From Candidatus Latescibacterota bacterium (GTDB lineage Bacteria; Latescibacterota; UBA2968; UBA8231): a DNA stretch of 64,000 nt. Below, in pieces: positions 11,926 through 60,589 of this stretch; positions within the stretch are counted from its first letter, which is position 1, and every line of letters starts with the position of its first letter. The notes beneath the pieces are model-generated. The model saw only the letters and a program-made list of their open reading frames with translations, ran no database searches and had not been told where the DNA came from. The stretch spans positions 6,688,001 to 6,752,000 of the forward strand of contig OZ242214.1 in assembly GCA_965206595.1 (NCBI GenBank), in the 5' to 3' direction. A program made the translations under genes and the position numbers.

Positions 11926-13929
11926 CTTGACTCCCTCGTAACAACCCCGTTTTCAAGACAGAGGTTTTTTTCTTGAAACTTTAGTTTCACCAACATGAAA
12001 AAGAATCGGGAATGCGCCGCTATGTAAGCAGCTTCAGCGCCATATCGTCCGATGGCCTCGAATCGGGCTTATAAAGCCTTTTGCGGCGCCGAAAGGAACT
12101 TCCGTTCCCTTTTTCAGCCCATCGCCGGAGCTATGGCTTCGGGTTTGGGCGTAAGCGCCCGCAGCATTCTCTTGAAATTGCAAGCCAGGGCTTTGAGGTA
12201 AACGGCCAGCTCCACGCGCCAACGCCCGCGCACGCGCAGGGCGCCCAGCCCGTGTCTTCGTTTCAGTTCCGAGACCGTGGCCTCGATGCCGGCGCGAATG
12301 CGATAGCGCTCCCGGAAGGCGCCGCTGGCCATGGCGCGGCGGCGACGTTCGAGGTTGACGGCTTTCAGGTCCACGGTCACGGCGTAGCCGTCCCCGTCCT
12401 GGTTCGGCCGCACCGGGCAGAGGGGAAACAGGGCGCAGGTCTGGCAGCTTCGGCGCTCGAAGGTCAGCACCACGTGGTGCTTCTTCTTCTCATACGACGT
12501 TTGCTCGCGGGCCAGGTGTCCGGCCGGGCAGATGGCCGGATCCCGGAGACGGGCCTCGACGAGGAAGTCGGCCTCGGTCACCGTATCGGGCCGCTCCTCG
12601 ACGTCGACCTGGGGGCCTTTGACCGGGCTGACCAACTCGGTGCCGAGGCGTTCGGCGTGGATGGCATGGTCGCCGGAGCCGAAGGCGGTGTCGGCGACCA
12701 GCTCGTCGGGTCGCTGCCCGCGCTCTTCGAGGGCCTCCAGCACCGGCATCGTCGCGTGCTCGTCACTGGCGCAGGCATCGGTCACCGCTACGTGGGTGAT
12801 CATGTTCACGGTGTCGGTCTGGTCGTCGTCGGTCTGGTCGTCGTCAGTCTCGACGCAGGTCTCGGCGATCTGCACCTCATACCCCTTTGCCCTTGCGGCC
12901 GTGGTAGGTGGCCTCGGCATCATAGGGGCTTTGCAGCGAGTCGCTGCCGACGTGCTCCGGCGCCTTCAGCGCCACCGGCACGCCGCCTTCGCCGGCGTCG
13001 TCGTCCTCGGTCGAGGGGCGCTGCTTGTCCGCGACCACGTCGCACTGCTCCCACAGCAGGCGCTGCAGCAGCGCCCAGGACTCCAGGCCCTCGGCCGCCG
13101 TGCCCGCACACAGCTGATGGAGACGGTAGAGGTCGCGGGCGCACACCGGCAGCCGCCTCTTGCCCGTGCCGGAGGGCGCGTCCTGGTAGGCCGTGGCGCT
13201 GCCGTCCTCCTTCAGGTAGCGCTCGCGCAGGCGCTTCGACACCCGCCCGTACAGGCGCGGATGCTCCGCCGCCAGGGTTTTCAGAAAGTGACGGAGGGTC
13301 TCACACAACAGCCCCAGACGCGACAACACCGCGATGTTGCTGAGCACGTGGGTGGAGTCCAGGCGTTGCCGGGTGACCTTCGTACCCAACGCTTGCAGAA
13401 TGCCATCCGTAGTCGCCTCGAACGCCTGCCGGCCGCGGTCATGGGCCAGCAAGCGGGCGCGGAAGTTGTGCAGCGTCAGGACGTTGTTAGTCCTCGTCTT
13501 CTGCGCCAGGTGGGCCTCCTCCGGGGTCAGCTCCAGGGCGTGCTGCCACAACAGGCTGAACTCCAGCTGCTCCAGCGCCTCGGCGTCGGTCAGAGCGAAC
13601 ATCTCCTTGAGCAGAAGCACGCCCAAGACCGTCGCCACCGGCTGGTTGGGACGACCGTTGTCGTCGCAATACAAGGACGCAAACTGCGCTTCATCGATCA
13701 GCGGCAAGGCACGCGTGCGAAAGGTCTCCGCCCAGCTCGCCTGCAGGCGCTGCCGCTTGGCCGCAGGCACCAGGTTGCGGCTCTCGAACAGGGTGCGTTG
13801 CGAATCCTTCGTACGAAACATCAGCCCCATCCACTAGAGAGGAAGTGTGTGACGGATTGGTATACCCAATATACCAAGAATCCCTGATTATCGGGGCTGT
13901 GAGAGAGGGGTTTTTACGAGAGAATCAAG
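11926..13929 (-). mobile_element. IS1182/IS5-like insertion sequence
   Basis: 23-bp terminal inverted repeats cttgactccctcgtaacaacccc (11926-11948) and ggggtttttacgagagaatcaag (13907-13929), 20/23 match; encloses a DDE transposase. Confidence 0.85.
12114..13830 (-). pseudogene. DDE transposase (DUF772 + DDE_Tnp_1_6-like), +1 frameshift at C4 run 12882-12885
   Basis: GRPNQPV, LHNFR, RLDSTH, LQSPYDAEATY..KGK|GYEVQ, ADTAFG, CPAG, C..C.LFPLC, YRIRAGIEATVSELKR. Confidence 0.85.
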
Positions 13930-22700: not shown

Positions 22701-24312
22701 TGGCCCGCTGAATCTGGTCGCTGCCGTTGTCCGTCCAGTAGAGCTTGCCCCCGGCTGCGTCCACGGCCAGCCCCCGGGGAAGGTCCAGGCCGGTGGCGAC
22801 CAGGTCCTCGATTTCGGAGCCGTCGAGGTTGGACCGCTGGATCTTGTCGGCGCCGCTGTCGGTCCAGTAGAGCTGGCCGCCGGCTGCATCCAGGGCCAGG
22901 CTCAGCGGCGTCTGCAGGCCGGTGACCACATCCTCGACTTGAGAGCCGTCGAGGTTGGACCGCTGGATCTTGTCGCTGCCGTAGTCGGTCCAGTAGAGTT
23001 TGCCCGTTCCCGCGTCGAGGGCCAGGCCCAGGGGGATGCGCAGACCGGTGGTGACGAGGTCCTCGACTTGAGAGCCGTCGAGGTTGGACCGCTGAATCCG
23101 GTCGCTGCCGTAGTCGGTCCAGTAGAGCTGGCCGGCGGCTGAGTCCACGGCCAGGCCGCGCGGGTTGACCAGGCCGCTGTCGATTACGTCCTCGACCCCG
23201 GAGCCGTCCAGGCGGGAGCGCTGAATGCGGTCGCCGTCCGCGTCCGTCCAGTAGAGCCAGGTCGTATCCCCGCCGGCCGCCAAGGACCCGATCCCTTCCG
23301 GCAGCGACGGGTCGGACGGGTCGGCGTGGTAGGCCTCGATGAGCCGGGCGTCGTCCAGGTCGACCTGCCCGTCCCGGTTGACGTCGCCGAGAGAAATGTC
23401 GCCGGTGGGCAGGGACAGGGTCGGGTCCTCGCTGTAGGAGGCGATCAGCAGGGCGTCGGCGAGATCGACCCGGCCGTTGCCGTCGACGTCCCCCAGCAGG
23501 CCGCCTGCAACCGCCGCCTTGCCCCGAGGCAGGTCCGCCAGCGTTTGAACCTGGATCTCGACCCGCCCGGCCCCCACCCGGAAGGCCGGGTCGACCCAGG
23601 GAACCAGCCCCGATCCCGAGACCGTCAGCCCGTAGAGCTGACCCTCGCCGTGGACCGAAGCCCTCGCCCCATCCGAAACCGCTCCACCCGCCGGGACCAC
23701 CGGGCCGTCCAGCAGCACCATCGACCGCGTCAGGCGCTCCCCGCCGCCCAGCAGACGGTACAGGTACACCCCCGAAGCCACGCCTCGCCCGGAGGCGTCG
23801 GTCGCGTTCCAGGTTGCGGTGTGAAAGCCGGCCGGCCGCGCCCCGTCGACCAGGGTCGTCACCCGCTGCCCCAGGATGTTGAACACCTCCAGGCGCACCC
23901 GCGCCGGGGCCGGCAGCTGATACGGAATGATCGTCGAGGGATTGAACGGGTTGGGGTAGTTCTGACCCAGCTGCAGGCGCGCCGGCAGGGGCGCCGCCCG
24001 GTGCAGCGCCTTCAGGGGCAGGGCGAAATAGCCGCTCTCATCCGCGGTGGCGCCCAGCGAGCGCCCCAGCTCGGCGAACAGCCGCACCCGCGCCCCGGCT
24101 GCCGGGGCGCCCGAAGACAGAAGCACCCGACCCTCCAGCAGCGGCTCGGCGCCGGCGGCGGCCCCGGCGCCTGATCCCGGTCCCGCGAGGCAGCCGAGCA
24201 CCGCCAGCAGCCATCCAAAACCGCCGGCACCCGGGAAAGAGGCCGAGGAGCGCCGGGCGGCCAGGGTGCGGGGCGTATCGATGGGGTTCTCCAGTCGTAA
24301 GGTCGGCCGCAT
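19705..24312 (-). CDS. Giant adhesin-like protein, proximal part: signal peptide, FlgD-Ig/T9SS-CTD-like domain, dockerin-like pair, three 6-bladed LDL-receptor YWTD propellers, Ig-like spacers
   Basis: QNYPNPFNPST; GDVDGNGRVDLAD and GDVNRDGQVDLDD; 18 YWxD repeats in three groups of six; ends in a Pro-rich hinge. Confidence 0.88.
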   Translation of the reverse strand: MRPTLRLENPIDTPRTLAARRSSASFPGAGGFGWLLAVLGCLAGPGSGAGAAAGAEPLLEGRVLLSSGAPAAGARVRLFAELGRSLGATADESGYFALPLKALHRAAPLPARLQLGQNYPNPFNPSTIIPYQLPAPARVRLEVFNILGQRVTTLVDGARPAGFHTATWNATDASGRGVASGVYLYRLLGGGERLTRSMVLLDGPVVPAGGAVSDGARASVHGEGQLYGLTVSGSGLVPWVDPAFRVGAGRVEIQVQTLADLPRGKAAVAGGLLGDVDGNGRVDLADALLIASYSEDPTLSLPTGDISLGDVNRDGQVDLDDARLIEAYHADPSDPSLPEGIGSLAAGGDTTWLYWTDADGDRIQRSRLDGSGVEDVIDSGLVNPRGLAVDSAAGQLYWTDYGSDRIQRSNLDGSQVEDLVTTGLRIPLGLALDAGTGKLYWTDYGSDKIQRSNLDGSQVEDVVTGLQTPLSLALDAAGGQLYWTDSGADKIQRSNLDGSEIEDLVATGLDLPRGLAVDAAGGKLYWTDNGSDQIQRANLDGSEVEELVSTGLHTPRGLALDAEGGKLYWTDSGTGKIQRANLDGSEIEDLVTEGLLSPRGLALARTAETVGNRPPTLAPLADRAAAAGDTLTLAAAASDPDGDALTYTASSSDEAVARVEVTDSLLTVYALSMGRATITATARDPEGLEAVQRFAVLVGAGGPGTVVRLYWTDAEADRIRRSHLDGTGVEDVIDSGLVNPRGLAVDEAAGKLYWTDYGSDRIQRSNLDGSEVEDLVTTDLQIPLGLALDAAAGKLYWTDNGTDRIQRSNLDGSQVEDLVTGLRTPLGLALDAAGGKLYWTDSGADKIQRANLDGSGIEDLVATGLRIPRGLALDTAAGKLYWADSGSDRIQRSNLDGTEVEDLVTTGLGTPRGLALDVSAGKLYWADSSTDRIQRSNLDGSEVEDLVTEGLLSPRGLALVRTAAADNQAPSLEPLADRTAATGDSLTLELFGSDPDGDALTYTASSGDEAVASVEVADSLVTLRLLAVGQTAITVTARDPGGLQATRTFTVTVQASNEPPVAVPWLYWTDARSDRIQRAELDGSGIHTLVTGLMQPRDLALDRDGGRMYWTDSGADKIQRSHLDGSKVEDLVTEGLQEPFGLALDLAGGKIYWTDWGTDKIQRSHLDGSEIEDLVTTGLNEPYGLALDRDGGKIYWTDWGSDRIQRANLDGSQVEDLVTGLNQPRGIALDLGEGRMYWPDWGTDKIQRAYLDGSGVEDLVTEGLQTSQAIALDLVEGRMYWTDYGTDKIQRANLDGSDVEDLVTTGLKEPYGLTLGAGLPAQILKVEGASATLNLTGRFGDPEGGPLTLTATSSDEAVAAASLADSTVTIAPVAPGEVTVSVTARDEGGRAATLPVAVTVYPSNRPPEAKALANRKIRIGSPARVELSSAFTDPDEEDVLTYTATSSNEAVATAAVEGTGLLITPRKTGQTRISVTARDPKGLEASLSFNLTVEPKPPPRPPRTPPGSSSGDGDGGSVTPPPPPHHHRPDPMRRQ
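19740..19757 (+). repeat. G10-C-G7 homopolymer tract at the frameshift between the two adhesin ORFs
   Basis: G11 (or G8) would fuse ...GSVTPPPPP to PPPPTRPNAPAVAPASSTSLKVTWTAP. Confidence 0.85.
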
Positions 24313-24381
24313 ACAGGACCGGGGTTGCCGAAGCCGCGGCAGGAACGCAGGGGCCCTGCGCGTTTGGATCCTGTATGGGCG

Positions 24382-24397
24382 TGCAAAGACTGTTCCA
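24382..24397 (-). promoter_or_regulatory. Sigma54 (-24/-12) promoter of the adhesin gene
   Basis: Minus strand TGGAACAGTCTTTGCA = GG-N10-GC, about 70 bp upstream of the ATG at 24312. Confidence 0.7.
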
Positions 24398-24476
24398 TCT
24401 TCGAAGAAATGGAGCTAACTACTTGCAGATAAAGGGGTTAATCCATATGGGGAGAAGCCGAGGAAAAAGGGGGAAG

Positions 24477-24630
24477 TGTCGCATTTTGAAATATTCCTGC
24501 GCTGCCCCGGGGGTTGCCTGAAGGGGGTTCACCTTGTTCAATCAACTGTTTATAAACGGGTTATAAAAAACCAGGGGAGGCAGGGAGGCCCATATGTAGC
24601 AATATGCGACACCTGTCTCAATTTGCGACA
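24477..24630. promoter_or_regulatory. Enhancer-binding-protein sites plus IHF site
   Basis: tgtcgcattttgaaata 24477-24493, tgtagcaatatgcgaca 24595-24611, tgtctcaatttgcgaca 24614-24630; aatcaactgttta 24540-24552 fits WATCAANNNNTTR. Confidence 0.65.
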
Positions 24631-24711
24631 GAAAAGGGAAGACTGGAAAGGGGCCGTGCGGTCGGATCTCAGCGGGGATCCGCAGCCCGCGGACAGGCAG
24701 AATGCCCGGCT

Positions 24712-24878
24712 AGGTCTTCGACCTGGCTGCCGTCGGGGTTGGCCCGCTGGATCTTGTCGGTGCCGTAGTCGGTCCAGTACATCCTGCCCTCGCCCAGATC
24801 GAGGGCGATCGCCTGGGAGGTCTGCAGGCCCTCGGTGACCAGATCCTCGATTTCGGAGCCGTCGAGGCGGGCGCGCTG
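24712..24878 (-). pseudogene. Orphan YWTD-repeat fragment, paralogous to the last blade of propeller 3
   Basis: QRARLDGSEIEDLVTEGLQTSQAIALDLGEGRMYWTDYGTDKIQRANPDGSQVEDL; close to the ~20410-20570 segment. Confidence 0.8.
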
Positions 24879-25186
24879 CGCGTGCGCGGACGCTGGCGCG
24901 TGGAGCTGGCCGTCTACCTCAAAGCGCTGGCCTGCAATATCAAGAGAATGGTGCGGGCGCTTACGCCCAAACCCGAAGCCATAGCTCCGGCGATGGGCTG
25001 AAAAAGGGAACGGAGGTCCCTTTCGGTGCCGGAAAAAGGCCTGATAAGCCCGATTCGAGGCCATCGGACGATAGAGCGCTGAAGCCGCTAAACTGCGGCG
25101 CATTCTCGATTCTTTTCATGTGGGTGAAACTAAAGTTTCAAGAAAAAATCTCTGTCTTGAAAACGGGGTTGTTACGAGGGAGTCAA
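24868..25186 (+). mobile_element. 3' remnant of a second, inverted copy of the IS1182-like element
   Basis: GALRVRGRWRVELAVYLKALACN...PKPEAIAPAMG* followed by TIR ggggttgttacgagggagtcaa; diverged reverse complement of 11927-12245. Confidence 0.88.
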
Positions 25187-25188
25187 TC

Positions 25189-25343
25189 TTGATTCTCTCG
25201 TAAAAACCCTACGTCGCTCAGAATGCCCGGTTTATCACACAACATATAGTGTATGCCTTGTCTTTGTTGGCCAATATATAGTGGCGATCTAATGTGCTGA
25301 ATCGCTGAACATCCTCAAAATGGGGTTTATACGAAGAAGTCAA
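25189..25343. mobile_element. MITE-like mini-element 1 with IS1182-like ends
   Basis: Starts ttgattctctcgtaaaaaccc (same as IS 5' TIR), ends ggggtttatacgaagaagtcaa; no meaningful ORF. Confidence 0.8.
25237..25284. promoter_or_regulatory. Tandem NrdR-box-like operator pair in mini-element 1
   Basis: acacaacatatagtgt (25237-25252) and ggccaatatatagtgg (25269-25284) versus consensus acaCwAtATaTwGtgt; 32-bp spacing. Confidence 0.65.
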
Positions 25344-25345
25344 TG

Positions 25346-25499
25346 TTGATTCTCTCGTAACAACCATACGTCGCTCAGAACACCGGTTTTTTATACAACA
25401 TATAGTGTATGCTTTGTCTTGGTTGGCCAATATATAGTGGCGCTCAAATGTGCTGAATCGCTGAACACCCTCAAAATGGGGTTTATACGAAGAAGTCAA
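25346..25499. mobile_element. MITE-like mini-element 2 (diverged tandem copy)
   Basis: ttgattctctcgtaacaacc...ggggtttatacgaagaagtcaa; 2 bp from copy 1. Confidence 0.8.
25393..25440. promoter_or_regulatory. Tandem NrdR-box-like operator pair in mini-element 2
   Basis: atacaacatatagtgt (25393-25408) and ggccaatatatagtgg (25425-25440); 32-bp spacing. Confidence 0.65.
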
Positions 25500-25702
25500 T
25501 GTTGGTATTCGATGTCGACGATCCTCAGGGAGATGGTGGACCTGATGGAATTTATACTATCCCGCCTGTGGACCCCGACCCCGAGTCCAGCCAGGGGCCG
25601 GATTTTTTCGGGGACGGACTGCTTGTGCCCGTTGGTGGAACGGAGGACAGCGCCGTGGAGTCCGTCTCGTGGGGGCGCATCAAGGCCTCACTCCAGCCCT
25701 AG
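25499..25702 (+). pseudogene. 3' remnant of a secreted SWGRIK-motif protein, paralog of 36866-37759
   Basis: GPDFFGDGLLVPVGGTEDSAVESVSWGRIKASLQP; 5' part replaced by MITEs/IS. Confidence 0.8.
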
Positions 25703-26397
25703 ACCGCCAGGTACTCCCTCAACCGGGAGTCGTCTTCCTTCAGCTCCTCCGCGGTCGCCGAAAAACGGATCGCGCCCCGCTCCATCACGTGCACCCGGTC
25801 GCTCAGGGCGAGCGCGAACTGCGGGTTCTGCTCGGCCAGCAGGATGGAAAGTCCGGTCTCCCTCAGGGCGGCGAGCTGCTCCTGCATCGACCTGACGACC
25901 AGCGGCGCCAACCCCTCCGACGGCTCGTCGAGCAGCAGCAGCTTCGGGCTCCCGACGAGGCTGCGGGCGATCGCCAGCAACTGCTGCTGCCCGCCGCTGA
26001 GCACTCCGCCGAGCCTTTTTGCGAGCGGGCCCAAATCCGGGAAGAGGTCGTACACGAAACGCTCGTCCCGCTGCCTTTTCCCGGGCCGTCTCGCGATCTG
26101 CAGGTTCTCCTCCACGCTCAGTCCCGGGAATATCCGCCGCTCCTCCGGCACGTAGCCGATCCCCAGGCGGGCGATCTTGTGAGTCGGGGCCGCGGTGACG
26201 TTCCTGCCGTTCCACTCGACCCGCCCGCGCCGCGCCGGGGTCAGGCCCATGATGCTGCGCAGGGTCGTGGTCTTGCCGGCGCCATTGCGCCCCATCAGGG
26301 CCACCACTTCCCCTTCGCCGACTTCGAAGCTCACCCCCGACAGAACGCGGCTGAGGCCGTAGGAGACATGCAGGTCGGTTACCTGGAGCCGGGTCAC
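25699..26397 (-). CDS. livF: Branched-chain amino acid-type ABC transporter ATPase
   Basis: GRNGAGKTT, LSGGQQQ, LLLDEPSEGLAP. Confidence 0.92.
   Translation of the reverse strand: MTRLQVTDLHVSYGLSRVLSGVSFEVGEGEVVALMGRNGAGKTTTLRSIMGLTPARRGRVEWNGRNVTAAPTHKIARLGIGYVPEERRIFPGLSVEENLQIARRPGKRQRDERFVYDLFPDLGPLAKRLGGVLSGGQQQLLAIARSLVGSPKLLLLDEPSEGLAPLVVRSMQEQLAALRETGLSILLAEQNPQFALALSDRVHVMERGAIRFSATAEELKEDDSRLREYLAV
25700..25727 (+). repeat. Right copy of 28-bp direct repeat (livF 3' end)
   Basis: tagaccgccaggtactccctcaaccggg. Confidence 0.9.
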
Positions 26398-52772: not shown

Positions 52773-53708
52773 ATGACAGCTACTCCGAAGACACAATATT
52801 TAAACACCCCGTCTGAACAGTCACAACCTTCCATACTCGGACCTCCCGTCCCGAACACCCTGTCCCTGGACGAATTCTACAGCATCTTCCCCGACGAGAT
52901 ATCAGCAGAGAGGTGGTTTGAGGATCTACGATGGAGCAACGGCATTACCTGCCACAGGTGCGGAGATAACAGGTTTACAGAAACTAAATCCGAAAGTCGC
53001 TCCGCTGTGGTGCCGTACTGGTGCTACACCTGCCGCAAACGCTTCAGCGTTCGCACTGGAACCCGCCTTCAAGGCACCAACCTTCCTCTGAAAAAATGGG
53101 CCTTGAGCATTTACCTGTCCGTCAACGGACCGATAAGCTCCACAGGTCTAAGCGGCTATCTCGGAACGGAGGCGCATACAGCATGGTCCGCCTTGCAAAA
53201 TATCCGCCAAGCCTGGGGAGATCCTGAACCGCTCCACGCCACCGTCGCAGAAATAGACGAAACCCCCTTCGGAAAGGTGCGAGGCGCTTCAGGACAGATA
53301 ATCGTCCTGGGAATGAAAGACCGGAACACCGGAAAAATCGCGGCAAAAGTCATCCCCAAAAAAGACCTGGCCACCATAGAACCCTTCGTCCAACTCCACA
53401 TGCAGGATAACCAGGGCACCCTCTACAGCGACGGGGCCAAGGTCTACAGGGCGGTAAGGTGCGTCGCAGACCACCAGTATGTCGTTCACAGCAAGGGGCA
53501 ATACGTCAATGGCAAGGTGCACACTAATGGAATTGATTCATTCTGGTCCTCTCTGAAGGAAGCATATCTTCACACCTATAGACAGAACATATCCGCAAAA
53601 TACTTTCCTCTGTACGTAAACGAGATCGTCGGACGACATAATATCCAGGACAAGGATACAATGGGGAAAATGAAATGGCTCGCCTCCAGGTTGCTGGAAC
53701 CGAAATAG
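52773..53708 (+). CDS. IS1595-family (ISXO2-like) transposase
   Basis: RWSNGITCHRC...CYTCRKRFSVRTGT zinc ribbon; EIDET, YSDG..VY, VHTNGIDSFWS, YVNE...RHN. Confidence 0.93.
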   Translation: MTATPKTQYLNTPSEQSQPSILGPPVPNTLSLDEFYSIFPDEISAERWFEDLRWSNGITCHRCGDNRFTETKSESRSAVVPYWCYTCRKRFSVRTGTRLQGTNLPLKKWALSIYLSVNGPISSTGLSGYLGTEAHTAWSALQNIRQAWGDPEPLHATVAEIDETPFGKVRGASGQIIVLGMKDRNTGKIAAKVIPKKDLATIEPFVQLHMQDNQGTLYSDGAKVYRAVRCVADHQYVVHSKGQYVNGKVHTNGIDSFWSSLKEAYLHTYRQNISAKYFPLYVNEIVGRHNIQDKDTMGKMKWLASRLLEPK

Positions 53709-56016: not shown

Positions 56017-56346
56017 TCAGTCTTCGGCCACGGCCCTCTCCAGGATCTCCTGGAGATAGGCGTTCATGCTCAGCCGATGGCGGGCGGCCTGCAGGGCGAC
56101 CCTCCGATGGAGGTCGGGCGTCGTGCGCAGCATCATCTTCCCGGAAAAAGGCTTCTCCGGCGGACGATCCTGCTCCCGGCAGAAAGCCAGGTACTCCTCG
56201 ACTGATCGACGCATCTCCCGGCGCAACTCGGCCACCGAGGAGCCGTAGAAGGAGATGACGTCGTTCGTGTTGACCACGGTCCCGTGAAACGAGCCGGTAT
56301 CGGGCTCGAAATCGAAGACACCGAGAAAGCCCTTGTACTCGATCAT
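56017..56346 (-). CDS. hicB: HicB-family antitoxin
   Basis: MIEYKGF...FHGTV...YLAFC...PEKPFSGK..LR..PDLHR...SMNAY. Confidence 0.93.
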   Translation of the reverse strand: MIEYKGFLGVFDFEPDTGSFHGTVVNTNDVISFYGSSVAELRREMRRSVEEYLAFCREQDRPPEKPFSGKMMLRTTPDLHRRVALQAARHRLSMNAYLQEILERAVAED

Positions 56347-56594
56347 GGTGTCACCCCCGCATTCTCCAGGAATCGGCGCAGGTCCCTCACCGCCCCCCTG
56401 CTCATCTCGGGGCCCGGATGGGGCCGGTGGAAGACCGCGACTCGATCGTTCAGCAGAATCGCCACTCTGGAGCCCGCTCGTTCGCTTACGATCCCGCCAA
56501 GCCCCTTGAGCATGAACTCCACATCCCGCCAACGAACGGCGCCGGGCGGATGGGCGAAGATCGCCTCGAGCGTTCTGCGATGGCGCCGGTTCAT
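56343..56594 (-). CDS. hicA: HicA-family mRNA interferase toxin
   Basis: HRRTLEAIF...WRDVE...GSRV...FHRPHP. Confidence 0.93.
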   Translation of the reverse strand: MNRRHRRTLEAIFAHPPGAVRWRDVEFMLKGLGGIVSERAGSRVAILLNDRVAVFHRPHPGPEMSRGAVRDLRRFLENAGVTP

Positions 56595-56629
56595 TCGCTG
56601 ATGATATCATTCTATGATAGCAAAGTCAA
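56590..56629. promoter_or_regulatory. Overlapping divergent promoters with palindromic operator between hicA and hen1
   Basis: Minus strand TTGACT-N17-TATCAT ending 6 nt before hicA ATG; plus strand TTCATT-N17-TATGAT; palindrome tgatatcat-tct-atgatagca 56602-56622. Confidence 0.6.
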
Positions 56630-56645: not shown

Positions 56646-58046
56646 ATGCTGCTGACGATCGCGACCACTTCAAAGCCGGCTACCGATCTCGGGTACCTGC
56701 TGGTGAAGAACCCCGCCCGCTGCCAGTCGTTCCCCCTGCCGTTCGGACAGGCGCACGTCTTCTACCCGGTGGCCCGCGAAGACCGCTGCGAAGCGGCGCT
56801 GCTGCTCGACCTCGATCCGGTCGGTCTCGTGCGCGGCCCCCGGGGCGCCAACCCCGGCGACGGCGGGGCCCTGAAGCAGTACGTCAACGACCGCCCCTAC
56901 GTCGCCTCCTCCTTCCTCAGCGTCGCCATCGCCCGCGTCTTCGGCTCGGCTCTCAAGGGCAGCAGCAAGGACCGGCCCGAGCTCGCGGACACGCCGCTCC
57001 CCTTCGAGGCGGAGGTCGCCGTGCTCCCCTGCCGCGGGGGCGAGCCGTTCCTGCGGCGCCTCTTCGAGCCGCTCGGGTACGCGGTCGAGGCCCGGCGCCT
57101 CCCTCTCGACAGCAACTTCCCCGAATGGGGGGAGAGCCCGTACTACCGGGTGCGGCTGGCCGGAACCTGCCGGCTCCGCGACCTCCTCTCCCACCTCTAC
57201 GTCCTGCTTCCGGTGCTCGACGACGACAAGCATTACTGGGTAGGGCAGGAGGAGCTCGACAAGCTGCTGGCCCGGGGGGAAGGCTGGCTCTCCTCGCACC
57301 CGGAGCGGGAGCAGATCGCCCGCCGCTACCTCAAGCACCAGCGCTACCTGGCGAAGGAGGCGCTCGCCCGGCTCGTCGCCGAGGAAGACCCGGACGCCGA
57401 TGGCGAACCGGCGCATGAGCAGGAGGAGGAGGGTCTCGAGCGCGCGCTCAGTCTGAACGACCAGCGCCTCGCAGCGGTCAGGGGGGCGCTCCGGGAGGCG
57501 GGCGCGCGCAGCGTCATCGATCTCGGCTGCGGCGAGGGCAAGCTTCTCAAGGCCCTGCTCGACGACGGGGAGTGCGGCCGCATCGCCGGCATGGACGTCT
57601 CCCACCGCGCCCTCGAGATCGCCGGGGAGCGCCTCGGCCTCGAGCGCCTCCCGGCCGGACGGCGGCAGCGCCTCGAGCTCTTCCAGGGCTCCCTCACCTA
57701 CCGGGACGAGCGCCTCTCCGGGTACGACGCCGCCTGCGCCGTGGAGGTGATCGAGCATATCGATCCGCCGCGGCTGCCGGCGTTCGAGCGCGTCCTCTTC
57801 GAGTTCGCGCGGCCGGCGACGGTGATCGCGACCACGCCGAACGCCGACTACAACAGCCGCTTCGAGTCCCTTCCCGCCGGCCGCTTCCGCCACCGCGACC
57901 ACCGCTTCGAATGGACGCGGAAGCAGTTCCGCGACTGGGCGCAGGCCGCGGCCGGCCGCTTCGGGTACTCCGTCCGCTTCCTGCCGGTCGGCGAAGAGGA
58001 TCCGGAGCTCGGCCCGCCGACGCAGATGGCGGTGTTCTCGTTATGA
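56646..58046 (+). CDS. hen1: RNA 3'-terminal 2'-O-methyltransferase Hen1
   Basis: ATDLGYLLVKNP, YVNDRPYVASS, LPVLDDDKHYWV, DLGCGEG, EVIEH, TTPN..YN, RHRDHRFEWTR. Confidence 0.96.
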   Translation: MLLTIATTSKPATDLGYLLVKNPARCQSFPLPFGQAHVFYPVAREDRCEAALLLDLDPVGLVRGPRGANPGDGGALKQYVNDRPYVASSFLSVAIARVFGSALKGSSKDRPELADTPLPFEAEVAVLPCRGGEPFLRRLFEPLGYAVEARRLPLDSNFPEWGESPYYRVRLAGTCRLRDLLSHLYVLLPVLDDDKHYWVGQEELDKLLARGEGWLSSHPEREQIARRYLKHQRYLAKEALARLVAEEDPDADGEPAHEQEEEGLERALSLNDQRLAAVRGALREAGARSVIDLGCGEGKLLKALLDDGECGRIAGMDVSHRALEIAGERLGLERLPAGRRQRLELFQGSLTYRDERLSGYDAACAVEVIEHIDPPRLPAFERVLFEFARPATVIATTPNADYNSRFESLPAGRFRHRDHRFEWTRKQFRDWAQAAAGRFGYSVRFLPVGEEDPELGPPTQMAVFSL

Positions 58047-60589
58047 AGCTGACCGTTCCCGAGCCCTCGCTGGTCGTTCTCGCCGGCCCTTCGGGGAGCG
58101 GCAAGACGACCTTTGCGCGCCGGCACTTCCGGCCCACCGAGGTGATCTCTTCCGACTACTGCCGCGGCCTCGTCGCCGACGACGAGAACGACCTGTCCGC
58201 CACCGGCGACGCCTTCGATCTCCTTCACTACATCGCCGGCAAACGGCTCGCCGGCCGCAGGCTCACCGTGATCGACGCGACGAGCGTGAAGCCGGAGGAC
58301 CGCGCCAGGCTGATCGCCCTGGCCCGCGAGTTCCACCTCCTCGCCGCGGCCATCGTCTTCGACCTGCCGCCGCAGCTCTGCCAGCGGCGCAACGAGGAGC
58401 GCGCCGACCGCGACATCGACCCCCACGTGGTGCGCCGGCAGAGCCGCTCCCTGCGCCGCTCCCTGCGCGGCCTCAGGCGGGAGGGCTTCCACTCCGTCAC
58501 CGTGTTCGGCAGCCCGGAAGAAGCGGATGCCGCCTCCATCGAGCGCCAGCCGCTGTGGCCGGACCGGCGCGGCGAGCGCGGGCCCTTCGATATCATCGGC
58601 GACGTCCACGGCTGCTTCGACGAGCTCTCCGAATTGCTCGGCTCCCTCGGCTGGGAGGTCGGCTCCGGGTCCGCGGGGCCGGTGGCGCGCCACCCGGAAG
58701 GGCGCAAGGCGGTCTTCCTCGGGGATCTCGTCGACCGCGGCCCCCGCTCTCCGGAGGTGCTGCGCCTGGTCATGGGGATGGTCGAGGCGGGAACGGCTCT
58801 CTGCATTCCGGGCAACCACGACGTCAAGCTCCTGCGCAAGCTGCAGGGCAGGGATGTGAAGATCTCCCACGGCCTCGCCGAGACCCTGGAGCAGCTCGAG
58901 CGCGAGCCGGCCGAATTCTCCGACGAGGCCGCGGCCTTCATCGGCCGCCTGGTCAGCCATTACGTGCTCGACGGCGGCGAGCTCGTCGTCGCCCACGCCG
59001 GCCTCGAGGAGGCCCTCCAGGGACGGGCGTCGGGCCGGGTGCGCGAGTTCGCCCTCTACGGCGAGACCACCGGTGAGACCGACGAGTTCGGGCTGCCGCT
59101 CCGCTGCGACTGGGCCGCGGCCTACCGCGGCGGAGCGACGGTTGTATACGGCCACACCCCGGTGCCGGAGCCGGAGTGGGTGAACCGCACCGTCAACATC
59201 GACACCGGGTGCGTCTTCGGGGGCAAGCTGACGGCGCTGCGCTATCCGGAAAGGGAGATCGTCCAGGTCCCGGCGCGGCAGGTCTACTGCGAGCCGGTGC
59301 GGCCGCTGCCGTCCTCCGGAGAGGCGGAAGGATCACGGCCGTACGGGGACCTGCTCGACATCGGCGACGTGCTCGGAAAGCGGCTCATCCCCACGCGACT
59401 GAACCGCGGCGTCGCCATCCGCAAGGAGAACGCCGCGGCCGCTCTCGAGGTGATGAGCCGCTTCGCCGTCGACCCGCGCTGGCTCGTCTACCTGCCGCCG
59501 ACCATGGCCCCGTCCGACACCGCCGCGGAGGGAGAGTACCTCGAGCACCCGCGCGAGACCTTCGCCCATTTCCGGGGCCAGGGGATTTCCCGGGTGATCT
59601 GCCAGGAGAAGCACATGGGGTCGCGGGCGGTAATCCTGCTCTGCCGGGACGAAGCCGCGGCGCAGCGCAGGTTCGGAGCCGGCCGCGGCGAGGCCGGAGT
59701 GGTCTACACCCGCACCGGGCGCCCCTTCTTCAGCGACCCGGAGCGCGGCTCCGAGGTCGTGGCGAGACTGCGCGCCGCGGTCGAGCGCGCCGGGTTCTGG
59801 CAGCGGTTCGACAGCGACTGGGTCTGCCTCGACGCCGAGATCATGCCCTGGTCGGAGAAGGCGCAGGAGCTGCTGCGCAGCCAGTACGCCCCGGCGGGGT
59901 CCGCGGCAGGGGCCGCCTTCGAGGCCGCCCTCGCCGCCCTGGGGCAGGCCGCGGAAAGAGGAGGCGGCAACGAAGAGCTGGAGGCCCACCTGCGGCAGCG
60001 GCAGGGCTGCATCTCCCGCTACGTCGACGCCTACCGTCGCTACTGCTGGCCGGTCAACAGCCTCTCGGATCTCCGGGTCGCCCCCTTCCACCTGCTGGCG
60101 ACCGAGGGCCGCGTCCACGTCGACCAGGACCACCTCTGGCACATGGAGACCCTCGCCGGGCTGTGCCGGGCGGACGCAGAGCTGCTGCTCGAGACGCGGT
60201 ATCTCCTCGTCGACACGGGGGATCCGGACAGCGAGGAACAGGGAACCCGCTGGTGGCTGGAGCTCACCGAAAGCGGCGGCGAGGGCATGGTGGTCAAGCC
60301 CCTGGACTGGCTCGCCCGGGGCAAGCGGGGGCCGGCGCAGCCGGCGCTCAAGTGCCGGGGGCGGGAGTACCTGCGCATCATCTACGGCCCCGAGTACACC
60401 CTCCCCGGGCAGATCGAGCGCCTGCGCCAGCGCCGGTTGTCTGTCAAGCGCTCGCTGGCGCTGCGGGAGTTCGCCCTCGGCATGGAGGCCCTGCACCGCT
60501 TCGTCGAGGGGGAGCCCCTCTACCGCGTGCACGAGTGCGTCTTCGGAGTGCTCGCCCTGGAGAGCGAGCCGGTCGACCCGAGGCTGTGA
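58043..60589 (+). CDS. pnkp: Polynucleotide kinase/phosphatase/ligase Pnkp (RNA repair)
   Basis: GPSGSGKTT kinase; GDVHG, GDLVDRG, GNHD phosphoesterase; EKHMGSR, EGMVVKP ligase; ends ESEPVDPRL; ATGA overlap with hen1. Confidence 0.96.
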   Translation: MKLTVPEPSLVVLAGPSGSGKTTFARRHFRPTEVISSDYCRGLVADDENDLSATGDAFDLLHYIAGKRLAGRRLTVIDATSVKPEDRARLIALAREFHLLAAAIVFDLPPQLCQRRNEERADRDIDPHVVRRQSRSLRRSLRGLRREGFHSVTVFGSPEEADAASIERQPLWPDRRGERGPFDIIGDVHGCFDELSELLGSLGWEVGSGSAGPVARHPEGRKAVFLGDLVDRGPRSPEVLRLVMGMVEAGTALCIPGNHDVKLLRKLQGRDVKISHGLAETLEQLEREPAEFSDEAAAFIGRLVSHYVLDGGELVVAHAGLEEALQGRASGRVREFALYGETTGETDEFGLPLRCDWAAAYRGGATVVYGHTPVPEPEWVNRTVNIDTGCVFGGKLTALRYPEREIVQVPARQVYCEPVRPLPSSGEAEGSRPYGDLLDIGDVLGKRLIPTRLNRGVAIRKENAAAALEVMSRFAVDPRWLVYLPPTMAPSDTAAEGEYLEHPRETFAHFRGQGISRVICQEKHMGSRAVILLCRDEAAAQRRFGAGRGEAGVVYTRTGRPFFSDPERGSEVVARLRAAVERAGFWQRFDSDWVCLDAEIMPWSEKAQELLRSQYAPAGSAAGAAFEAALAALGQAAERGGGNEELEAHLRQRQGCISRYVDAYRRYCWPVNSLSDLRVAPFHLLATEGRVHVDQDHLWHMETLAGLCRADAELLLETRYLLVDTGDPDSEEQGTRWWLELTESGGEGMVVKPLDWLARGKRGPAQPALKCRGREYLRIIYGPEYTLPGQIERLRQRRLSVKRSLALREFALGMEALHRFVEGEPLYRVHECVFGVLALESEPVDPRL

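Follow-up and report, generated by a model that had tools for sequence, protein, structure and literature searches.

A MITE mobilised with IS1182-family ends carries a predicted NrdR operator at its centre

NrdR is described as a dedicated repressor of ribonucleotide reductase genes that has one to three sites in each genome. The literature places the nrdR gene in 77% of bacterial genomes. In the available sections of PMC13584703, the NrdR site is described as two 16-bp boxes, both of them required, held apart by a linker of 15-16 bp whose own sequence is free. Mutagenesis reported there singles out six highly conserved positions in the boxes (C4, A6, A8, T9, T11 and G13), C4 and G13 being critical, and at least 63% AT is needed between these two. 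A linker of 15-16 bp places an integer number of helical turns between the box centres (PMC13584703 and PMC12051234, in their available parts), and the DNA bound by NrdR makes two sharp 90-degree kinks, one per box (same part of PMC12051234, citing a structure of 2022). These sites work by overlapping the binding sites of RNA polymerase, and NrdR proteins bind heterologous sites as well (PMC13584703, same sections).

The closest precedent for a host-protein site inside a miniature element is the Correia element: its IHF site is the only MITE-borne binding site for a host protein listed in the available part of a 2024 review of prokaryotic MITEs, and a 2007 review, also available in part, says of this element that IHF 'might facilitate transposition'. 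A term search of the same part of the 2024 review found the words repressor, operator and transcription factor absent. The initial annotation of the locus described here knew of no MITE with NrdR boxes. We found no paper containing NrdR and MITE together as whole words, in a search whose coverage leaves aside about 1.7 million PMC articles and the subscription journals, and a wider literature search on the MITE/NrdR theme returned nothing relevant. Among the papers listed for NrdR with Chloroflexi or Dehalococcoides, none contains NrdR, and the available part of the PMC9110341 supplement has 0 occurrences of Latescibacter, Chloroflex or Dehalococc.

The locus lies in the window, the whole 64,000-nucleotide stretch of Candidatus Latescibacterota DNA that we analysed. 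Here, Tandem Repeats Finder reports a repeat of period 156 at 25160-25504, with 2.2 copies and 89% matches. A base-level reading resolves it, from left to right, into an IS remnant, AATCTT, unit 1, AATGTT, unit 2 and a final AATGTT. The remnant (24869-25186, plus strand, 318 bp) is the 3' part of a second copy of an IS1182-family IS and matches the right end of the full-length copy described below at 91.6% identity (321 aligned columns). It retains the last ~39 transposase codons, the 3' untranslated part and the right terminal repeat; its 5' side is lost and unit 1 adjoins it. The features that follow are all on the plus strand: a 6-bp target copy at the remnant/unit 1 junction (AATCTT, 25185-25190), MITE copy 1 (25191-25341, 151 bp), a target copy common to units 1 and 2 (AATGTT, 25342-25347), MITE copy 2 (25348-25497, 150 bp) and a last target copy to its right (AATGTT, 25498-25503). 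The three target copies are readings of the sequence under the target model set out below, and the limits of the elements were set from the target duplications in 97 copies. Copy 1 is 95.5% identical to a solitary copy at another locus (L053), and copy 2 is flanked by a perfect AATGTT/AATGTT duplication. Units 1 and 2 are identical in 144 of 158 alignment columns and differ in 14.

The array region has a G+C content of 41%, against 64% across the window. Gene remnants surround it: a minus-strand fragment of an LDL-repeat protein lies on its left, and on its right an orphan C-terminal piece of 67 codons is followed by a convergent liv-type ABC transporter. No Rfam family matches 24300-25800 at E-values up to 1, and distant blastn searches of plasmid and phage collections gave no match to either unit. 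A promoter scan found no sigma-70-type promoter in the window units or in one Dehalococcoidia copy; we therefore dropped the weak -35/-10 candidates that had been picked by hand. A separate low-G+C region at 24313-24660, upstream of the gene for a 1,535-aa LDL-repeat surface protein, contains an inverted repeat (24476-24488 and 24600-24612) and three TGCGACA motifs, and may be a regulator site. Elsewhere in the window, a Hen1-like methyltransferase stands beside a Pnkp-type kinase/phosphatase/ligase (56646-60586), a bacterial RNA repair pair that adjoins a HicB-family antitoxin (56020-56610).

The full-length IS1182-family IS, a minus-strand copy at 11927-13928, is 2,002 bp long with the TT/AA beside its ends included; it was delimited by its terminal repeats and open reading frames. 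Its transposase is encoded in two overlapping frames, 13830-12877 and 12923-12114, with the Pfam domains DUF772 and DDE_Tnp_1_6. The best NCBIfam model is transpos_IS1182, which the two pieces match at 55.5 and 124.2 bits; these scores stay under the cut-off of 270 bits, set for the whole protein, because the protein is split in two frames. The break between the frames (12877-12923) adjoins an A/G run and may reflect either a true frameshift or a mistake in the assembly; the relatives in Dehalococcoidia are single-frame. An inverted repeat, TTGGTATA-N5-TATACCAA, lies at 13857-13877 between the left end of the IS and the start of the transposase, possibly as an operator of the IS itself that is unrelated to the NrdR-type boxes. 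Other transposase genes are also present: an IS1595/ISXO2-like gene in the window (52773-53705), and a DDE_3 fragment beside the MITE copy at L053 (positions 2510-2878 of that locus).

The mini-elements, whose ends match the terminal repeats of this IS, probably obtain their transposase from it. The initial annotation had described units of ~155 bp with IS1182-like ends. The ends do match, whereas the elements proper measure 151 and 150 bp and share only about 20-21 bp with the IS on the left and ~32 bp on the right. The MITE core, about 100 bp, is without counterpart in the IS. Thus, the interior is not a deletion product of the parent, as only the ends are common to both. Nor did consensus searches, core searches and reading of the sequence find any NrdR-type box in the IS itself, and for this reason we rejected the idea that the boxes are transposase binding sites. 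An internal-deletion derivative of this kind of IS does occur at positions 290-321 of another locus of a Latescibacterota MAG (L107), where the transposase gene is fused straight to the right terminal repeat.

How widespread is the element? Searching genome contigs with a degenerate terminal-repeat pattern yielded at least 124 loci (L001-L124), among which Dehalococcoidia copies dominate; the Latescibacterota census is incomplete and all MITE copy numbers given here are lower bounds. Three of the listed loci (L053, L100 and L107) come from one Candidatus Latescibacterota MAG, CBDCXV01, and are 92-95% identical to the MITE or IS of the window, which makes the source of the window, with moderate confidence, a relative of this MAG. 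L053 and L100 carry one solitary MITE copy each, 95.5% and 94.0% identical to unit 1. Among the other 121 listed loci, 116 are from Dehalococcoidia or Chloroflexota MAGs and contain either the left end of a related IS or a 161-bp MITE. The terminal repeat of these elements is that of the window IS with one mismatch, the transposase is ~60% identical to that of the window in its N-terminal part and ~48% in its C-terminal part, and the 161-bp MITE aligns end to end with the window unit at 65% identity (E = 8e-13). These data show a MITE family spread over two phyla. MITE copies are found at 89 loci at least, in addition to the window, and 97 complete copies could be extracted (93 from Dehalococcoidia, 4 of Latescibacterota type). 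The copies with these ends that the initial annotation had proposed to look for are therefore at hand, both as the solitary copies at L053 and L100 and in the Dehalococcoidia MAG CBDAOG01, where at least 46 complete ones were counted from a locus-to-assembly table compiled by hand.

The 161-bp MITE, which is very abundant, and the related IS occur in Dehalococcoidia MAGs such as CBDAOG01, CBDEFX01 and CAXXWW01, and 13 listed loci of the assembly pair CAXXFI01/OY761986 have IS ends only and no MITE. Some members are rearranged: in one variant about 50 bp around box 1 are repeated (L098), and another is 185 bp long with an internal duplication (L052). The Dehalococcoidia copies also contain a hairpin with a 6-bp stem, GTACCC...GGGTAC, and a T-rich run after it (on the minus strand of L004 at 1898-1921, and at the corresponding position of other copies). 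The hairpin overlaps box 1 at its start; the stem is kept, while the loop is among the most variable spots of the element. The Latescibacterota-type element lacks the hairpin and is 10 bp shorter there.

The complete copies reveal how the element inserts. A perfect 6-bp target duplication flanks 82 of the 97, and 7 more have it with one mismatch; several duplications are of 7 bp. Together, the targets give the consensus (C)AANNTT(G). We had also considered a 2-bp duplication with TTGA...TCAA ends, which fits 62 of 72 copies, and replaced it by the 6-bp model because the latter also accounts for copies with ATGGTT or the like at their flanks. The clearest insertion is at L053, where the MITE sits inside a D-2-hydroxyacid dehydrogenase gene. 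The frames on either side match positions 2-104 and 105-178 of the Pfam domain 2-Hacid_dh_C. When the empty site is rebuilt, the two halves of the domain abut at profile positions 104/105, and the frame offset equals the 157 bp of element plus duplication.

Head-to-tail arrays with one target copy in common occur both in the window and at L090, where the array has three members and the middle one belongs to another subfamily than both its neighbours. We rejected tandem duplication of one unit as their origin because each unit has its own target copies, because the window units differ at 14 of 158 columns and because the L090 array mixes subfamilies. The window tandem instead arose by successive insertions beside a resident end: an element already in place offers a target in its own flank, and this explains the head-to-tail arrangement. 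Target duplications, a clean in-gene insertion and many copies at different loci thus confirm that the units are independent insertions of a true IS-mobilised MITE, and the mobility put forward in the initial annotation stands. As for where the element lands, 57% of insertion sites lie in frames of at least 600 nt, against 77% of random positions. The median spanning frame is 702 nt at 61 insertion sites and 934 nt at 1,220 random positions (p = 0.005); in DNA this rich in G+C, the measure is a rough one.

What does the core contain? Each window unit has two 16-bp boxes whose starts are 32 bp apart, just as first annotated, which leaves a linker of 16 bp. All are on the plus strand: ACACAACATATAGTGT (25237-25252) and GGCCAATATATAGTGG (25269-25284) in copy 1, ATACAACATATAGTGT (25393-25408) and again GGCCAATATATAGTGG (25425-25440) in copy 2. 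Each of the four boxes has all six conserved positions, C4, A6, A8, T9, T11 and G13, and AT accounts for 7 of the 8 bases between C4 and G13 in box 1 and for 8 of 8 in box 2 (88-100%). Set against the available sections of PMC13584703, the boxes have every sequence property listed there. Outside the units, matches in the window do not exceed chance. With up to 3 mismatches to the consensus of the initial annotation, ACACWATATATWGTGT, only the two copies of box 1 match in 64 kb (0.02 expected; 0 of 100 shuffles reach 2), and the core CWATATATWG with up to 1 mismatch matches 5 times in the window, 4 of them in the units (0.53 expected). All four Latescibacterota-type copies have 12 of the 12 conserved positions of a box pair and a 16-bp linker. 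Within the 409 kb formed by the window and the loci, there is no other 12/12 pair, and every 11/12 pair belongs to a member of the MITE family.

The Dehalococcoidia lineages carry their two boxes at the equivalent place of the element, with 10/12 and 11/12 conserved positions and a 15-bp linker, so that both types of linker fall within the 15-16 bp of known sites. Boxes of the main Dehalococcoidia lineage keep C4, A6, A8, T9 and G13 and have C for T at position 11 in both boxes; at L049 (OZ240240.1), box 1 has 6/6 positions and box 2 has 5/6, with C at position 11. When A6 is changed to G in both boxes of an NrdR site, binding in vitro becomes 4- to 10-fold weaker (PMC13584703, available sections). 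As this change mirrors T11C, the C at position 11 should weaken binding in Dehalococcoidia. Judged by its sequence, we read the MITE box pair as a complete, predicted NrdR operator. It does not sit in a ribonucleotide reductase promoter, since there is no nrd gene and no promoter call, and the L053 copy lies in a dehydrogenase gene. Indeed, Pfam finds no nrd gene, ATP-cone or nrdR among the 132 window open reading frames scanned, in agreement with the initial reading that the window lacks nrd genes, and neither nrdR nor any nrd gene was seen in the window or at any listed locus. A Zn-ribbon motif for nrdR has 0 matches in the 409 kb of window plus loci, a result of little weight.

Are the boxes more conserved than the rest of the unit? 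This check had been suggested at the outset, and it came out positive in two sets of copies. Among 91 Dehalococcoidia copies of 161 bp (37 of them unique), a minor allele reaches at least 3 copies in 1 of 32 box columns, in 20 of 93 columns of the remaining interior and in 1 of 36 terminal-repeat columns (boxes against other interior, Fisher one-sided p = 0.011). Per column, minor-allele copies average 0.44 in the boxes and 8.7 in the linker. The second set compares three lineages that are 65-76% identical: the Latescibacterota type, the main Dehalococcoidia type and L049. L049 is 76% identical to the main Dehalococcoidia type, and the linkers of these two differ at most positions. Across the three lineages, 10 of 12 NrdR-critical positions are invariant, against 6 of 20 other box positions (p = 0.0046). 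The corresponding counts are 5 of 16 for the linker, 31 of 91 for the remaining interior and 30 of 36 for the terminal repeats. Conservation is not confined to the boxes, for the lineages also agree well in a right-hand interior block (26 of 39); and since there are only three lineages and the copies within a genome are recent relatives, these statistics rest on few independent events. With this reservation, the constraint inside the boxes follows the NrdR pattern, at a strength equal to that on the ends that the transposase needs, and the predicted operator is an ancestral, constrained part of the MITE family.

The geometry is also regular. In L049, as in 89 of 92 Dehalococcoidia copies, the 47-bp site has an arm of 57 bp on each side; in 3 of the 4 Latescibacterota-type copies, the arms measure 46 and 57 bp, a difference of 11 bp or about one helical turn. 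To explain these results, we propose that the MITE would be moved in trans by the transposase of the window's IS1182-family IS, with duplication of its 6-bp target. The central NrdR-type operator, with its 16-bp boxes three helical turns apart and a sequence that does not derive from the IS, would be bound by a host NrdR tetramer loaded with dATP/ATP, which would kink the DNA at both boxes. This kinking may fold the short, stiff element so that the transposase can pair both ends, in a role comparable to that supposed for IHF in the Neisseria Correia element, and movement of the MITE would be tied to high dNTP supply. In addition, each copy would act as an NrdR decoy and could occlude nearby promoters, as side effects rather than as the reason why the site is retained.

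Two considerations lead to this proposal. In a MITE family, the features held constant between subfamilies are those that copying needs, and the boxes are so held, which suggests a role in cis in the element's own movement; and the two kinks, the central site and a 2-kb IS without such a site together suggest an architectural role for NrdR. The same IS can also be turned against the proposal, because it moves without the site, which counts against a role in end pairing. Looping costs little for an IS of 2 kb. We infer NrdR binding and a role in transposition, while end pairing itself is conjecture, and taken as a whole we hold the explanation to be evenly balanced between right and wrong. A bolder version is doubtful in our eyes: a MITE family that crosses phyla would have recruited NrdR as an architectural factor, its 151-161 bp folded like a hairpin, its transposition gated by the dNTP state and its copies forming a decoy sink that shifts dNTP homeostasis, so that NrdR would no longer be dedicated to nrd genes.

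The boxes might also have no role at all. A fragment of an nrd promoter could once have been caught between two IS ends and carried along since, its conservation reflecting the youth of the copies. Such passive cargo would fit a core that is foreign to the IS, copies that are near-identical within genomes (37 unique of 91) and window copies that lie among gene remnants with nothing to regulate. But lineages only 65-76% identical nevertheless hold 10 of 12 critical positions invariant, against 5 of 16 in the linker and 6 of 20 elsewhere in the boxes. Critical positions that stay fixed while the others drift point to selection on binding, not to youth, and the exact 57/57-bp centring is unexpected for neutral cargo. 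We therefore find it unlikely that the operator is a mere passenger. If binding is selected, is the bound protein NrdR? Another protein, a structural motif in DNA or RNA, or parts of an outward promoter could have produced the likeness by convergence, and the C at position 11 in the Dehalococcoidia boxes, the TATA-like hexamers within the boxes and the Dehalococcoidia-specific hairpin over box 1 can all be cited for it. Convergence would however have to produce all 12 critical positions and the right linker length in 4 of 4 Latescibacterota-type copies and nowhere else in 409 kb, and the positions kept across lineages are those of NrdR (C4, A6, A8, T9 and G13 in both boxes). The Rfam search of 24300-25800 and the promoter scan, both negative, also argue against a structural motif or promoter, and we regard a convergent likeness as improbable.

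Selection could finally act at the level of the host, if copies are kept for dNTP-dependent repression of their neighbours or if they soak up NrdR and raise ribonucleotide reductase expression. With at least 46 complete copies, one Dehalococcoidia MAG would have enough sites for a low-abundance repressor, and NrdR sites do overlap those of RNA polymerase (PMC13584703, available sections). Against this, the promoter scan of the units was negative for sigma-70-type sequences, the L053 copy interrupts a coding gene, long open frames show only a mild deficit of insertions (57% against 77% at random) and selection at single loci would not hold the boxes as uniform across subfamilies as the terminal repeats are. 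Rewiring or titration as the reason for the site thus seems quite unlikely to us. The initial annotation had offered three functions: placing new genes under dNTP control, titrating NrdR and coupling transposition to nucleotide status. The evidence leans against the first, given the missing promoter, the copy in coding sequence, the window copies among remnants and the mild frame depletion. It leans towards the third, as the boxes are central and conserved like the ends, and this is the link to transposition that our proposal develops.

If the proposal is true, this would be the first bacterial MITE found to spread the operator of a specific metabolite-sensing regulator, as far as the literature search above extends, and a natural system for the effects of decoy sites on dNTP control and for the sensing of nucleotide supply by a transposon. 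In practice, genome-wide searches for NrdR boxes will return repeat-borne sites in some phyla.

How, then, does the element compare with known systems? Like the NrdR operators of S. coelicolor nrdRJ and E. coli nrdHIEF, the MITE site has two partially palindromic 16-bp boxes with the six positions in both, a 16-bp linker and an AT-rich stretch between C4 and G13 (88-100% in the MITE). Unlike them, it is a predicted site that lies neither upstream of an nrd gene nor at a recognisable promoter, within a multicopy mobile element. With IS1182-family ISs and their MITE derivatives it shares the terminal repeats of a resident IS, a small non-coding body and target duplications, and it departs from simple internal-deletion derivatives such as that at L107 by its ~100-bp core without IS counterpart. 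Finally, like the Correia or NEMIS element of Neisseria in its 155-bp form, it is short, has terminal inverted repeats and contains an internal site for a DNA-bending host protein, IHF in Neisseria and, by prediction, NrdR here. The two elements differ in parent IS family, in hosts and in sequence, and the candidate protein here is a specific nucleotide-sensing repressor rather than a general nucleoid protein.
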